From: Vicinamibacterales bacterium
Lineage (GTDB): Bacteria > Acidobacteriota > Vicinamibacteria > Vicinamibacterales > UBA2999
Direction of reading: 5' to 3'
Assembly (NCBI GenBank): GCA_035495795.1
Contig: DATJFF010000196.1
Coordinates: 1,326 to 65,325 of the forward strand
Length of the DNA stretch: 64,000 nucleotides
Shown: one piece after another, positions 22,461 through 46,559 of the stretch
Layout of the letters: the number at the start of each line of letters is the position of its first letter
Numbering within the stretch: the first letter of the stretch is position 1
The notes under the pieces: model-generated
Database searches by the model: none
Told to the model about the DNA's origin: nothing
Seen by the model: the letters and a program-made list of their open reading frames with translations, nothing else
Made by a program: the position numbers and the translations under genes

Positions 22461-22796
22461 CTAGGTGGTTGCCTTCAGCACCTTGTGAATCGCGAGAATC
22501 ATCCGGTCGAACTCGTCGACTTCGACCGTCAGGCGTTTCTTGCCGGCAGTGGTGAGGGTGTAATACCTGGCCTTGCGATTGTTCTCGGAGACACCCCACT
22601 CACCCTTGACCCAGCCGTTCAAAAGGAGGCGCTGCAGGGCCGGGTACAAGGAGCTCTCGCCGACCTGCAGCACATCGTCGGACTGAGCCCGCAGGTGCTC
22701 GGCAATACCGTAGCCGTGCTTCGATCCCCCGCGCAGGGCGCGGAGGATCAGCAAGTCCAGCGTTCCGGGCAGAAGGTCAGGGGTGCCGCTTCCCAT
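22461..22796 (-). CDS. PadR-family transcriptional regulator (copy 1)
   Basis: LLILRALRGGSKHGYGIAEHL...LYPALQRLLLNGWVKGEWGVSENNRKARYYTLT is the PadR winged-helix signature. Confidence 0.9.
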   Translation of the reverse strand: MGSGTPDLLPGTLDLLILRALRGGSKHGYGIAEHLRAQSDDVLQVGESSLYPALQRLLLNGWVKGEWGVSENNRKARYYTLTTAGKKRLTVEVDEFDRMILAIHKVLKATT

Positions 22797-24729: not shown

Positions 24730-26244
24730 CTACTGGCAACGGAAGTTCCTTGCCTCGTCGGTGCTGCCGCTGCCAATGTAGTGCGCCGTCGCCGGATACG
24801 CGCACAGCGGCCGAGTGCGGTCGACGACGCCGCTGGTCAGGTGCGAGGCTTCGATCGACTGCGGCTTCTGGCCGGTTTCGACCCAGCGATCGAGCGTACC
24901 CACTTTGTCGAAGACGTCAGTGCCTGGCCCGCCCTGGCAATGTGCCATCCCCGGCACCATGAACAGCGCGACCGCATTCGAGCCCGCCGATCCGACCGCC
25001 TTCGAGATCCGCTCGTACATGATCAGGCTGGTGTCGGGCGAGACGAGCGGATCGGCCCAGCCGTGATACATCAGCAGTTTGCCGCCGCGTTTGAAGAAGG
25101 GCGAGAGGTCGGGATCGCCGCCGTACAGCAGGCCCTGGTCCGCTTTCACCGCGCGCTCCACGTCCTCTGGCACCTTGATCGTGTGATAGTCCCAGCTGGG
25201 TGTGAACACGATCTTTCGCATCCCTTCGTGAGACTCCCCTGACGGCACGGGGCCTCCGACGCCGCCCCATCCGAGCTCGGATCCCGGATAGTAGCGGCCC
25301 GGATGCAGAACGGCGCCGCTCTTCGGATCGCGAATCGGACGCATCATGGCGTTCGCCGTCTCGACCTGATCCTTCGTCAGGCAATCGGCACGATCCTCTG
25401 CGGCGCACGTGAGCGTCGCGAAGTCGAAAGAGCACTTTGACGGATCCTCGATGACGCCGTCCTTCACGCCGTCCAGGGCATCGCACCGGTTGAGGACCGC
25501 GTTGTGCATCATCGAATACTTGCTCGGGGGGATCACCGCGGCCGGCGTGCGGTTGACGTAAGTGTTCAACCATACACGCGCGGCGTACAGGCGCATCTGA
25601 TCCCACGACGGATCGCCGGCTGCGATGCCATCGAAATCCTCGGGATACCGCTGCGCCTCGATCAGGGCCTGACGTCCGCCGGTCGAGCAGGAGTTGAAAT
25701 ACGAGCGAGCCGGCGGCGCGTCGTAATGCGCGGCGACGACCGCCTTCGCGGTCACCGTCATCTCGTGAATCGCGCGGTAGGCGAAGTCGACGAGCTTCTC
25801 GGGATGTCCGGGGACGAAGTCGGCGTTGCCGCCCACGTGACCGCCATCGGTTCCGGCGGCGGCATATCCGGCTTTGACCGACGCCGCCATCGCCGGATAC
25901 GGAATCTCTCCTCCCAAGCCGCCGTTTCCCGACGCCTGCAGCTTGCGATTCCACCCCGACTGCGGCAGCCACACTTCGACGCGGATGTCGGAGTCGGCGG
26001 ATGGAGCCAGCTTCAGCGTCACGCGACAGAACGCCGGCAGCGTCGTGAATACCGCGGTCGCGGCCGCATTGGCCGCCGTTGGCGGCGCGAACGCGCCAGC
26101 CTGCACGGGCTCAGCCGCCAGCACCCTTCCATTCGTCACCGCCACCTGCGCGAGTGACTCGCATGCAATCGGCGCAGACGTTGGGGCATTCAAGGCATCG
26201 ACTGTCGCCGCACCGAACAAGGCGATCAAGACCGCGATTCTCAT
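24730..26244 (-). CDS. Secreted tannase/feruloyl-esterase family hydrolase
   Basis: Signal peptide MRIAVLIALFGAATVDA. The nucleophile block FNSCSTGGRQALIEAQRYPEDFDGIAAGDPSWD is typical of the tannase/feruloyl esterase family. Confidence 0.9.
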   Translation of the reverse strand: MRIAVLIALFGAATVDALNAPTSAPIACESLAQVAVTNGRVLAAEPVQAGAFAPPTAANAAATAVFTTLPAFCRVTLKLAPSADSDIRVEVWLPQSGWNRKLQASGNGGLGGEIPYPAMAASVKAGYAAAGTDGGHVGGNADFVPGHPEKLVDFAYRAIHEMTVTAKAVVAAHYDAPPARSYFNSCSTGGRQALIEAQRYPEDFDGIAAGDPSWDQMRLYAARVWLNTYVNRTPAAVIPPSKYSMMHNAVLNRCDALDGVKDGVIEDPSKCSFDFATLTCAAEDRADCLTKDQVETANAMMRPIRDPKSGAVLHPGRYYPGSELGWGGVGGPVPSGESHEGMRKIVFTPSWDYHTIKVPEDVERAVKADQGLLYGGDPDLSPFFKRGGKLLMYHGWADPLVSPDTSLIMYERISKAVGSAGSNAVALFMVPGMAHCQGGPGTDVFDKVGTLDRWVETGQKPQSIEASHLTSGVVDRTRPLCAYPATAHYIGSGSTDEARNFRCQ

Positions 26245-26303
26245 GGGTGGAAGTCTAGACCCGAACCCGGGCCTCCGCGCGGACGTGCGACACTTCTGTA
26301 CCG

Positions 26304-26439
26304 GGCTGCTGAAAAGCGCAGCCTGAAGTGAAAAGTGAGAGGTGAGAAGTGAGAAGCACGATCCATCCCCCGAAATTCAGAGCTTCTCACCTCCCACTTC
26401 TCTCTTCTCACTTCAGGTGCTGGCTCCTTCAGCAACCTG
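26304..26439. repeat. Near-palindromic intergenic element built from GTGARAR heptads
   Basis: The core arms 26322-26357 and 26382-26417 pair at 32 of 36 positions (31 Watson-Crick plus 1 G:U) around a 24-nt loop. The left arm is four tandem heptads, GTGAAAA GTGAGAG GTGAGAA GTGAGAA. The outer ends form small hairpins at 26304-26323 and 26414-26439. Confidence 0.8.
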
Positions 26440-26454
26440 CCAAGGAGGTGCCTC

Positions 26455-26949
26455 GTGAAGAAACTGCTCGTTGCCGTGCTCACCGTCGGCTTGCTCGCCG
26501 CCCATGACCTAGCGGCGCAGTCGACGCCCCCGTCGATTCAAGGCGTGTGGCGGATCGTCGAAGCGACCACGACCGGCCCCGGCGCCCGAACGATTCCGTT
26601 CGCCGGGCGACCCAACCTGACCATCATCACCGGCAAGCACTACAGCCGAGTCGAAATCCAGGCCGAGGGGTCACGGCCGGTTCTGGCGGATGCGGCAAAG
26701 GCGAGCGCCGACGAACTGCGAGCGGTATGGGGGCCTGTCGTCTGCGAAGCCGGAACGTATGAAGCGACAAAAGACGGCCTGATCACGATGCGTCCGATTG
26801 CCTCGAAGAACCCCGCGGTAATGGGCGAGGGCGTATTCATCACGTACGCCTACAAACTGGAAGGGGACACGCTGTCATTGACGCAGCAGCGCAACCAGAA
26901 CGGGCCGTTCGCCAACCCGTTCTCGCTCAAGTTCGTGCGGGCCGAATGA
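26455..26949 (+). CDS. Secreted lipocalin-like domain protein (paralogue A)
   Basis: GTG 26455 follows AAGGAGG. Signal peptide MKKLLVAVLTVGLLAAHDLAAQ. The IQGVWRIVE...GKHYSRVEI pattern is lipocalin-like. It is a paralogue of 36344..36853. Confidence 0.75.
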   Translation: MKKLLVAVLTVGLLAAHDLAAQSTPPSIQGVWRIVEATTTGPGARTIPFAGRPNLTIITGKHYSRVEIQAEGSRPVLADAAKASADELRAVWGPVVCEAGTYEATKDGLITMRPIASKNPAVMGEGVFITYAYKLEGDTLSLTQQRNQNGPFANPFSLKFVRAE

Positions 26950-29013: not shown

Positions 29014-29367
29014 ATGTCAGGTATCAACGCGCGCGCTCTCGACCGGGAGCTCAAACGCGGATCCGCGGAGCTGCTGATTCTCTCGCTGCTCGATGCCCGT
29101 CCCCGGCACGGCTACGACCTGAGCAAGCTGATCGAAACGCGATCCGGCGGACAGCTGAAGTTCCACATCGACTCGCTGTATCCGCTGCTATATCGCCTCG
29201 AGGAGCGCGGCTGGATCAAGGGCACCTGGGTCGAGAAGCCGGACGAGCGGCGCCGGCGCTTCTACAAGGTCACGGCCGAGGGGCGCCTGGTGCTCGCGGA
29301 GCAGCGACGCACCTGGGAAGCGTTCGTCGAAGCCGTGCGTCGCGTGACCGGAGACGACCATGCCTGA
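29014..29367 (+). CDS. PadR-family transcriptional regulator (copy 2)
   Basis: LLILSLLDARPRHGYDLSKLIE...LYPLLYRLEERGWIKGTWVEKPDERRRRFYKVT. TACTAT (29002-29007) lies 6 nt upstream of the ATG and there is no SD. Confidence 0.9.
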   Translation: MSGINARALDRELKRGSAELLILSLLDARPRHGYDLSKLIETRSGGQLKFHIDSLYPLLYRLEERGWIKGTWVEKPDERRRRFYKVTAEGRLVLAEQRRTWEAFVEAVRRVTGDDHA

Positions 29368-36343: not shown

Positions 36344-36853
36344 ATGTCGATGCATTCGAGCGTTCTCGTGGTCCTGTCGGGGCTCGGCGCGGCACTGCTG
36401 GTGGCGACAGTGGTGTCGGCGCGCACCACCGACTCCCGGGCGGCATTCCAGGGCGTGTGGCAGACGGTCGAGGTGGTGGTCCCCGGACCGACGCCGCAGA
36501 GGTTCACACCCGGCGCCACGCTGGCGATCTTCCATGGCACTCACTACAGCCGCGTCGAAGTCCACGCGGATGGTGCGCGGCCTGTGCTGGACAACCCGGC
36601 ATCGGCTTCGGCAGACGAGCTGCGCGCGGTGTGGGGGCCGTTTGTCGGCGAGGCCGGCACGTTCGAGGTGACCGACGACAACCGCGTCACGATGCACGCC
36701 TCAGTGGCGAAGAATCCAGCCGCGATGTCGAACGGCGCCGCCAGCGTCTATACCTACGAGCGGAAGGCCGACACCCTGACCCTGACCCAGGTCCGCACGC
36801 CTTCAGCCGCGAGCGCCCCTCCGGTGAGGGTCACGCTGAAGCGTGTGGAATGA
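36344..36853 (+). CDS. Secreted lipocalin-like domain protein (paralogue B)
   Basis: ATG 36344 follows AAGGAG. It has a signal/anchor sequence, FQGVWQTVE...GTHYSRVEV, and shares the identical run SADELRAVWGP with 26455..26949. Confidence 0.75.
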   Translation: MSMHSSVLVVLSGLGAALLVATVVSARTTDSRAAFQGVWQTVEVVVPGPTPQRFTPGATLAIFHGTHYSRVEVHADGARPVLDNPASASADELRAVWGPFVGEAGTFEVTDDNRVTMHASVAKNPAAMSNGAASVYTYERKADTLTLTQVRTPSAASAPPVRVTLKRVE

Positions 36854-44139: not shown

Positions 44140-44895
44140 ATGGCCCGGATCGACGAAGTCGCGCCAGATTTGTTTCGAGTCTCGGTTTATGCGCCGCAGT
44201 TCGACCTGCAATTCAACCATTTCCTGATCAGGGACGACGAGCCGCTCCTGTTCCACACCGGGATGCGCCGGATGTTCCCGGAAGTCCGCGACGCGGTCGC
44301 GCAGATCATCGACCCGGCCACGCTGCGCTGGATCAGCTGGAGCCATTTCGAGGTCGACGAGTGCGGCGCCCTGAACCAGTGGCTCGCCGTCGCTCCCAAG
44401 GCCCAGCCCGTGTGCAGCAAGGTTGGCGCCGCCGTCAACCTGGACGACTTCGCCGATCGCCCGGCCCGCGGCCTCGGGAAGGACGAGGTGATCGAGACCG
44501 GCCAGCACCGCTATCGCTTCGTGCCGACGCCGCACCTGCCGCATGGATGGGACGCCGGGGTGCTGTTCGAAGAAACGACGGGCGTGCTCCTCTGCTCCGA
44601 CCTCTTTCACCAGCTCGGCGACGTCGAGCCGGTGACCTCCAACGACGTGCTGGGCCGATGGGACGCGGCGGTGGCGGCGTACCAGAAGCATCCCGTGCTC
44701 ATGGATTACGTGCCGCTGACGCCGGCGACACGGCGGCGGCTGAACGAGCTTGCCGACCTGCAGCCGCGCGTGCTCGCCGCGATGCACGGGTCCACGTTCG
44801 TCGGCGACGCCGCGGCCGCGCTGCGCAATGCTGCCGACATGCTCCAGAATCGCCTTGGAGTGTCGGCACTGGACCTGGCCGGCGCGAAGGCCTGA
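44140..44895 (+). CDS. MBL-fold protein of the flavodiiron/ODP-like type (no flavodoxin domain)
   Basis: ATG follows [23 protein letters not shown] and [17 protein letters not shown] carry the H-x-E-x-D-(H/E) di-metal motif arrangement of FprA-like MBL domains. Confidence 0.75.
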
Positions 44896-44905
44896 CGGTG
44901 CGCCG

Positions 44906-44946
44906 TCACTTTTCACTTTCAGGTTGCCGGGTTTTCCAGCAACCTG
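44906..44946 (+). repeat. Solo copy of the ~40-nt terminal hairpin module of the 26304-26439 element
   Basis: TCACTTTTCACTTTCAGG (44906-44923) differs by one inserted T from the reverse complement of 26322-26338. It is followed by the hairpin CAGGTTGC-N11-GCAACCTG (44920-44946). The module ends directly at the ATG of the ECF sigma gene. Confidence 0.65.
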
Positions 44947-45531
44947 ATGGCGATGCCGGAGACCGACGCCACGCTCGACGCGGTCAGCGACGAGGGGCTC
45001 GCCCGCCGCATTGCCAGCGGGCTGCCGGGATCGACCGACGCCGAGGAAGCCGAGTTATACCGTCGCTTCGCGCCCAGGGTCCGGTTGTATGGACGCCGGC
45101 ACCTGCGCGACGAAGCGGCGGCCGAGGACCTCGCGCAAGAGGTGCTGCTGCTGACGATCGAACGCTTGCACGCCGGTGAAGTGCAGAAGCCGGAGCAGAT
45201 TGGTTCGTTCATCCTGGGAGCCAGCCGGATGATGGCCCACGGCGAACGCCGAGTGGCGCGGCGGCGGGAAGCGCTTGCCGCCCGCTTCATGCCGACCGCG
45301 GCGGAAACGGCGCCGATGTCTCTCGCCTCGCTCGACGCGCCGCGCGTGGCTGCTTGCCTGCGGGGGCTCGCCGAGCGCGACCGGCTGGTGTTGCTGCTCA
45401 CCTTCTACGCCGAGCGGGAAGCACCGCGCATCGCGGACGACCTCGGCGTCTCGCCGGGCGCGGTCCGCGCCATCCGCCATCGGGCGATGGCCCGGCTTCG
45501 CGACTGTGTGCTCGGGGAGGCCCGATCATGA
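44947..45531 (+). CDS. ECF sigma factor (paralogue 2)
   Basis: FAPRVRLYGRRHLRDEAAAEDLAQEVLLLTIERL aligns with MAPRIHLYGLRHLRSAPAADDLVQQVLLAMLEAL of 32672..33211. Region 4 reads LAERDRLVLLLTFYAEREAPRIADDLGVSPGAVRAIRHRAMARLR. Confidence 0.85.
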   Translation: MAMPETDATLDAVSDEGLARRIASGLPGSTDAEEAELYRRFAPRVRLYGRRHLRDEAAAEDLAQEVLLLTIERLHAGEVQKPEQIGSFILGASRMMAHGERRVARRREALAARFMPTAAETAPMSLASLDAPRVAACLRGLAERDRLVLLLTFYAEREAPRIADDLGVSPGAVRAIRHRAMARLRDCVLGEARS

Positions 45532-46196: not shown

Positions 46197-46559
46197 ATGG
46201 CCGACAGACAGCGAAGCGTCGATCACCTGCTGCCGTTGAAGCCCAAGGTCCTGCACGTCCTGCTGGCCCTCGCCGATGGCCCGCGCCACGGATACGGCAT
46301 CATGCAGGAGGTCGCGGCGCGCACGGAGGGACTCGTGCGCCTCTGGCCGGCGGCCTTGTACGGAACCCTTCGCGAGCTCGAAGATCTCGACTGGATCGCC
46401 GAGGCCTCCGAGCGGCCCACCGATGACGACGAGCGGCGCCGCTATTTCGCGTTGACGCCCCTCGGCAAGCGGGTGCTGAGCGCCGAGGTCCGCCGCCTCG
46501 AAGCGATTGTCGATCTCGCGCGCGCCAGCCGGGCCTTGCGCAAGGAAGGACGCGCATGA
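46197..46559 (+). CDS. PadR-family transcriptional regulator (copy 3)
   Basis: VLHVLLALADGPRHGYGIMQEV...LYGTLRELEDLDWIAEASERPTDDDERRRYFALT. Confidence 0.9.
   Translation: MADRQRSVDHLLPLKPKVLHVLLALADGPRHGYGIMQEVAARTEGLVRLWPAALYGTLRELEDLDWIAEASERPTDDDERRRYFALTPLGKRVLSAEVRRLEAIVDLARASRALRKEGRA

Follow-up and report, generated by a model that had tools for sequence, protein, structure and literature searches.

The DNA stretch analysed here (the window, 64 kb in length) contains one long inverted repeat of the hairpin type, and it lies in the gap between two divergently transcribed genes. One gene encodes a tannase (24730-26244, - strand; PF07519, E 5e-104) and the other a 164-aa lipocalin-like protein (26455-26949, + strand; weak Lipocalin_5 matches in homologues). 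The question raised by this locus is whether the palindrome belongs to the gene pair, as a regulatory element placed between its two starts, or has come to the site from elsewhere.

An inverted-repeat search returned two arms of 36 nt each (26322-26357 and 26382-26417) that are 86% complementary and 24 nt apart, in agreement with the preliminary description of the locus, and the four tandem GTGARAR heptads given there were all found to be perfect by heptad search (26328-26355, + strand, within the full purine arm). The pyrimidine arm (26382-26417, + strand) consists of degenerate YTYTCAC heptads complementary to the purine arm, as judged by the inverted-repeat search and the pair table. Five matches to a GTGARAR double heptad were found in the window, all five inside the element, as compared with 0.21 in shuffled sequences, none of 100 shuffles reaching five. 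The loop of 24 nt (26358-26381, + strand) is partly conserved when aligned with CACGA...AATTC.GAG, the loop of the repeat family described below. The unit begins and ends with small REP-like palindromes on the + strand, reading CGGGCTGC-TGAAAAGC-GCAGCCTG on the left (26302-26325) and CAGGTGCTG-GCTCCTT-CAGCAACCTG on the right (26414-26439). These contain the outer hairpins noted previously, GGCTGC-N8-GCAGCC (26304-26323) and CAGGTGCTG-N7-CAGCAACCTG (26414-26439), which are conserved in the family. Both terminal ends are self-complementary as read from the sequence, and the unit has two folding options, one long hairpin or a 'clover' with each end self-folded.

The element has no coding capacity, and its contiguous 7-nt units form two inverted arrays with no spacers, which bears out the earlier statements that it is not a CRISPR array and contains no ORF. 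The reported lack of terminator context also agrees with the data: the copy lies between two divergent starts, a promoter and terminator consensus scan of 26100-26600 gave nothing promoter- or terminator-like, and, judged as an intrinsic terminator (a G+C-rich stem with a T run after it, 3' of a gene), the window copy does not qualify.

An exact-sequence protein look-up with the 164-aa protein of the window gave no record, and homologues were used instead. These point to the Acidobacteriota, with a Vicinamibacterales MAG (79% identity) as the nearest named relative. The gap between the tannase gene and the 164-aa gene is 210 bp in the window, as compared with 68 bp in L121 (164-aa ortholog 95% identical) and 67 bp in both L130 (89%) and the contig P0002 (91%; gene coordinates only). 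L153 (87%) has an empty site with a short tannase-side gap, and L154 (80%), in which the upstream gene is a different one, is empty at the insertion point. Alignments with L121, L130, L153 and L154 revealed a clean indel, with 142 extra nucleotides in the window; the difference between the gaps (210 - 68 = 142 nt) equals the length of 26298-26439, and the flanks in the window are ~97% identical to those in L121. The relatives read GTGCGACACTT(C/T), the next 4-6 nt and then GGAGGTG, and at the junctions in the window GTAC + CGGGCTGC...CAACCTG stands between CACTTCT and CCAAGGAGG with nothing duplicated.

Since the nearest and the more distant relatives are all empty, the short gap is ancestral and the unit was gained in the lineage of the window. 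As judged by the aligned sequences, 26298-26439 is evidently a recent insertion and not ancestral intergenic content. The ~136-bp element originally placed at 26304-26439 is thus real, and its extent is refined by the empty-site comparison to a complete unit of 142 nt (26298-26439, + strand), to which the gap sizes and the nhmmer profile of the family also point. The unit starts with the 5' tetranucleotide tag GTAC (26298-26301, + strand), assigned from the junction table and the L134/L174 pair considered below. On a further contig, P0003 (JGI 3300056388), a 90% identical ortholog has an upstream gap of 182 bp instead of 67-68 bp, which might represent an independent insertion at the same spot.

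The empty sites bear on the proposal that the palindrome is a locus-specific regulator of the divergent tannase and lipocalin-like genes, acting as a cruciform, an operator, a structured leader or an RNase III site. Such a role would suit its position between two divergent starts, by which it should be transcribed in the leader of the 164-aa gene, and it would suit a fold far better than that of shuffled sequences. The comparison with shuffled controls, named as a check in the preliminary description, gave z about -8 on both strands: the RNA fold of 26290-26455 has -79.9 kcal/mol on the + strand (shuffles -47.7 +/- 4.1; z -7.9) and -89.4 kcal/mol on the - strand (z -7.8), and the ssDNA fold of 26298-26439 has -35.1 kcal/mol (z -6.2). 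The minimum-energy folds of the element, both RNA and ssDNA, are the long hairpin. However, the site is empty in five relatives with 80-95% identical proteins, and the unit is also found beside unrelated genes elsewhere. Furthermore, a search of Rfam at a permissive E-value gave no family at its gathering threshold (the best, mir-671, scored 30.6 bits against a threshold of 65), and the sub-threshold matches were all of the microRNA-precursor type, hence generic hairpin noise. A regulator that evolved at this locus is most improbable. The cruciform regulatory DNA and the evolved structured leader suggested before are unsupported as locus-evolved functions, given that the orthologous 67-68-bp gap works without the element, and with the comparison of orthologous regions the locus-specific reading falls while a real, dispersed element stands. 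The statement that the element must overlap both promoters was too strong, as the distance from the insertion point is 54 nt to the tannase ATG and 15 nt to the start codon (GTG) of the 164-aa gene. The palindrome is a passenger and not a regulator that evolved for the tannase/lipocalin-like pair, for which annotation and regulatory inference should use the 68-bp ancestral region.

The insertion point has a conserved box on one side and, on the other, the ribosome-binding site of the 164-aa gene. The box, GTGCGACACTT, forms the flank directly 5' of the insertion point and lies outside the element (26285-26297, + strand); at 26285-26295 it is invariant in L121, L130, L153 and L154, although the upstream gene of L154 differs. 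On the 3' side, the flank (26444-26457, + strand), as judged by alignment and leader folds, comprises the ribosome-binding site GGAGGTG and the GTG start (26455). In three of the four empty relatives, the minimum-energy fold pairs the box with the ribosome-binding site and start codon around a 4-nt loop, and the short leaders of the relatives fold no better than shuffles (z -0.1 to -1.2). The box is complementary to the ribosome-binding site and GTG start of the 164-aa gene and may thus form a leader hairpin in which this site is masked, and the window copy would then have landed in the 4-5-nt apical loop of this small hairpin. By its position, the insert very probably belongs to the 5' leader of this gene. 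In the leader fold of the window, the basal helix 26286-26297/26444-26457 is kept and extended by the inserted hairpin (-86.7 kcal/mol, z -6.4). This helix is retained because the insert folds on itself and, on the folding model, the insertion is therefore probably near-neutral, at most modulating the stability or translation of the 164-aa mRNA. A secondary effect on this mRNA, through RNase III cleavage or altered translation, is also possible. The 164-aa gene itself is intact.

Metagenome contigs were scanned with a pattern satisfied by both arms of the window copy, and 21 loci were returned. The same ~140-nt element was present in 12 of the 21 loci, on contigs that all have 63-70% G+C. On the left, the family layout is CTAG-CAGGCTGC-TGAAGAAC-GCAGCCTG-AAG followed by (TGARARG)n, and on the right it is a loop of ~25 nt, (CYTYTCA)n and CTTCAGGTTGCTGGCTTTTTCAGCAACCTG with or without a final CTAG. 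The family ends read CAGGCTGCTGAA..., and both terminal palindromes are kept in all full copies. An nhmmer profile made from the full copies gave E-values of 1e-35 to 4e-51 for these copies and 1.3e-43 for the window (26299-26441). The window match scored 148 bits in the + orientation and 81 bits in the - orientation, and the unit therefore has polarity. The window copy and a typical family copy have 83% identity. The number of heptads varies between copies, with about ten on one arm in L142 and 4+3 in L139.

The copies occupy unrelated intergenic sites and mostly abut gene 3' ends. Their neighbours are unrelated housekeeping genes, including those for a phosphoribosyltransferase, a DUF465 protein, phosphatidylserine decarboxylase and an amino-acid permease, and further neighbours encode an alcohol dehydrogenase, an S9 peptidase and an aldo-keto reductase. 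A neighbour gene on one of the family contigs also points to the Acidobacteriota. In L144 (3043-3119), a few bases separate the end of a family copy from the 3' terminus of a tRNA-Arg(CCG) gene. Partial copies and solo ends were found in L147, L149, L151 and L152, those in L147 and L149 being solo ends. The window itself has a solo right end at 44905-44948 (+ strand; nhmmer E 6.6e-4), made up of two heptads and the terminal palindrome CAGGTTGCCGGGTTTTCCAGCAACCTG. It matches the family end pattern exactly, with 0 matches expected by chance, and lies in the 51-nt spacer that follows the stop of a metallo-beta-lactamase-fold gene (44140-44895) and precedes an ECF sigma-factor gene, which has its ATG at 44947. 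No family copy was found in ~45 kb of DNA scanned from relatives. An extension of the family to other phyla was considered and rejected, the nhmmer matches in L067 (Schlesneria) and L079 having heptads only, without the terminal palindromes.

Two full copies in L148 (110-256 and 857-1003) are 747 nt apart in the same orientation and flank a 150-aa ORF without a Pfam match. The second of these and the copy in L141 (1100-1246) have a common right flank but not a common left flank, a pattern that could have arisen by recombination of one copy with another or from sequences joined at the repeat during assembly.

A MITE/REP-like element was among the candidates in the preliminary description, which proposed a search for further copies. 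Such copies were found on 12 metagenome contigs, and the candidate is supported by a unit that occurs at unrelated loci and is absent from the orthologous site in the close relatives examined. We consider it likely that the window copy is a dispersed, non-coding, non-autonomous mobile palindromic repeat of the REPIN/MITE type in soil Acidobacteriota.

The manner in which the unit moves was approached through its junctions. The junction table gave the tag CTAG for six copies, CTAC for two and GTAC for the window. CTAG is found on both sides of many copies and TCAG on both sides of L140, which raised the possibility that a 4-bp target had been duplicated. For elements of the IS5 group, CTAG-like targets of 4 bp are typical. 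The main rival to a REPIN-type reading is accordingly a classical MITE driven by a DDE transposase, that is, a deletion derivative of a DDE insertion sequence (e.g. of the IS5 or IS630 type) that is cut and pasted with its target duplicated. Clear terminal inverted repeats are in its favour, together with small size, lack of coding capacity and multiple copies; target-site duplication, another feature of MITEs, is not seen in either filled/empty pair.

A second comparison is that of a filled and an empty aldo-keto reductase/RidA fusion gene (L134:78-223 and L174:3940-3960). In the empty ortholog L174, the gene ends ...GAG ATG CCG GGC TGA, and in the filled L134 the block CTAG-CGGCTGC...CAGCAACCTG stands between GAGGT and CCGGGC. 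Compared with L174, CTAG...CCTG has been inserted between GAGAT and GCCGGGC with nothing repeated, in a target without CTAG. The insertion replaced the last three codons, and the TAG of the element is the new stop codon in L134, so that the C-terminus MPG* became V*. Hence, CTAG as the 4-bp target duplication of an IS5-like MITE was rejected, the L134/L174 pair showing that it arrives with the element. No target duplication was found in either of the two independent filled/empty comparisons, the window against L121, L130, L153 and L154, and L134 against L174. L140 is the only copy with identical non-palindromic 4-mers (TCAG) on both sides, which could be a 4-bp target duplication. Another gene that ends on the TAG of a family element was seen in L144. 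Clean filled/empty pairs of this kind offer a means of learning how such repeats move while leaving their target unduplicated.

A DDE-driven MITE further predicts a source of transposase. A search among 10 genes adjoining family copies and 30 mid-size genes of the window yielded housekeeping genes only and no transposase of any kind, and no parent insertion sequence with the same ends was found in the family loci examined or in annotated plasmids and phages, against which a BLAST search with the family consensus gave no match. Solo ends and the hairpin-or-clover architecture also fit REPINs better than a MITE. Movement as a classical MITE is therefore unlikely, and a DDE transposase would be a less likely mobiliser than a tyrosine transposase.

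The REPIN-type reading was examined against published systems. REPINs form a long hairpin or clover, include singlets that are decayed remnants and show frequent compensatory changes (Bertels & Rainey 2011, PMC3116915). Like REPINs and their RAYT system (PMC3116915), the heptad family has two inverted terminal palindromes around a spacer, folds as a long hairpin or clover, occurs as dispersed extragenic copies and solo ends, shows compensatory changes and lacks target duplication. The compensatory changes were seen in seven full family copies, which have one common hairpin of 53 pairs, 5 of them changed on both sides; the pairing between the two halves is maintained through changes on both sides. 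Unlike in REPINs, the spacer arms are tandem GTGARAR heptads, the tag is CTAG, CTAC or GTAC and not GTAG, the host belongs to the Acidobacteriota, and no RAYT gene is linked to the family: the Y1 transposase RAYT (PF01797), in REPIN systems a single-copy gene with the repeats on its flanks, was not found among the 10 genes beside copies and the 30 window genes.

REPs carry a GTAG or CGTC tetranucleotide tag (Di Nocera et al. 2013, PMC3733652), and neither tag is that of the family. The likeness to GTAG- and CGTC-REPs (PMC3733652) lies in the tetranucleotide at the foot of a small palindrome and in copies mostly downstream of coding regions, and the difference lies in the tag sequence. Acidobacteria carry RAYT-like 'TIRYT' Y1 transposase genes flanked by long inverted repeats, and the associated repeat families consist of single, dimeric or grouped units (PMC3733652); these TIRYT families were compared with the present one by description only. 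No TIRYT gene was found in the window or among the family-adjacent genes examined. Because TIRYT genes with long inverted repeats have been reported in Acidobacteria (PMC3733652), a tyrosine-transposase route is plausible. The mobiliser would be a transposase of the tyrosine type (HUH/Y1, RAYT- or TIRYT-like) whose gene lies at another place in the genome, and copying would proceed via a single-stranded hairpin intermediate. At its usual sites, the element would act as a hairpin at the transcript 3' end, stopping or stabilising the transcript.

Other small bacterial repeats resemble the family in part. Correia elements of Neisseria are bounded by specific ends of 26 bp and insert with duplication of a TA target; they are transcribed together with adjacent genes, and their hairpins can be RNase III substrates and alter mRNA stability. 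The present units are likewise intergenic and palindromic, ~100-150 nt in length and with inverted ends, as in other bacterial MITEs, but no duplication was seen and there is no sequence similarity to Correia elements. The minisatellite-containing BrickBuilt MITE of Porphyromonas gingivalis (PMC4596501) is also small, intergenic and multi-copy, with a tandem short repeat between small inverted ends. BrickBuilt has a 23-nt repeat in one direct array, has promoter activity and is confined to a single species (PMC4596501), whereas the heptad family has two inverted arrays that form a hairpin. The kind of element is already known, and the heptad-built stem with terminal mini-palindromes tagged by CTAG-type tetranucleotides is an unusual design. 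The repeats constitute a new REPIN/MITE-like family in the Acidobacteriota, a phylum with few characterised mobile repeats.

Heptad-built hairpins are not confined to this family. A scan for three tandem GTGARAR heptads, with one genome per species, gave at least 120 loci in many phyla, and GTSARAR-type heptad hairpins were found in at least ten bacterial phyla and in viral contigs. Among the matches listed, 44 arrays belong to a hairpin, and the purine arm comes first in all 44. An independent test was made on viral contigs (L155-L190) using patterns of identical composition, and 18 loci were purine-first as compared with 2 that were pyrimidine-first. Genuine multi-heptad viral hairpins were purine-first by 10:1 for the GTGA type and 4:0 for the GTCA type, and the GTAA matches in these contigs are chance two-unit matches. 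The gene context of the hairpins, again among the matches listed, was convergent in 11 cases, tandem in 14 and divergent in 2, the window copy being one of the divergent cases. Of 65 long reading frames that enter a hairpin, 59 have their stop codon between -28 and +26 nt relative to the first base of the hairpin, and the TGA of the heptad itself is the stop codon in 20 such frames. A literature search for the literal heptad arrays returned no description in bacteria.

STRR of heterocystous cyanobacteria are intergenic tandem 7-nt repeats that are in places associated with small mobile repeats. Their heptads differ (e.g. CCCCAGT), and to our knowledge they have not been described as paired inverted arrays with fixed polarity.

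Copies within one genome have common loops, as in L008 and L058 and in three copies in L025, and housekeeping neighbours. The three homologous hairpins of L025 (162-406, 4514-4678 and 6905-7062) all fall inside an 8-kb section of a Fibrobacteria contig, with housekeeping genes between them, and one of them has its loop flipped relative to the arms. In L113 (5930-6145), on a contig of 67% G+C, outer heptad arrays of 7 and 13 units enclose a loop filled by a second long palindrome. Among the 10 genes beside the heptad hairpins of L025 and L113, no transposase was found, all being housekeeping genes.

The strict 7-bp period, with an invariant GTGA core and three variable last bases, and the fixed orientation of the arms across phyla would also be expected if the arrays were bound by a protein that recognises 7-bp repeats, the dispersed units then being a set of its binding sites and neither selfish nor RNA-level elements. 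By analogy, the model could be the omega repressor of plasmid pSM19035, a ribbon-helix-helix protein whose targets are WATCACW heptad arrays. However, no candidate binding protein is encoded near any examined copy, and the units lie at gene 3' ends and not at promoters. In addition, the loop length ranges from 3 to 217 nt among the matches listed, and the arm pairing is kept by two-sided changes, which a duplex binding site does not need. We therefore regard a protein-binding role as very unlikely and retain the reading of the window copy as a mobile hairpin repeat.

The arm polarity was considered in terms of stop codons, as GTGA heptads close all three frames. This cause was rejected: the GTCA hairpins, which carry TGA in the 3' arm, are purine-first by 4:0, and the window family, read from the right, leaves one of the three frames open. 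With the purine arm 5' and the pyrimidine arm 3', RNA from either strand forms a hairpin of the same type. A pyrimidine-rich 3' arm would leave a weak RNA-DNA hybrid while the hairpin closes, and this would explain the polarity.

A tentative proposal, which we hold to be possible though rather less than probable, is that hairpins of tandem GTSARAR heptads form an unrecognised cross-phylum class at gene 3' ends, that they are bidirectional transcript-end modules, and that several lineages have mobilised them as REPIN-like repeats. Such modules would act in termination or 3'-end protection, favoured by the weak pyrimidine-RNA/purine-DNA hybrid, and the window copy would be one mobilised module in an unusual place. 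If the purine-first, stop-adjacent rule applies across whole genomes, it would indicate a shared constraint on the way in which bacteria end transcripts. The locus alone is of moderate interest, which would be higher if the cross-phylum heptad-hairpin rule holds.

Two minor observations were made elsewhere in the window. A second weak Lipocalin_5-like gene is present at 36344-36853. Genes for PadR-family regulators are located at 22461-22796, 29014-29367 and 46197-46559, each directly upstream of a large co-directional gene.
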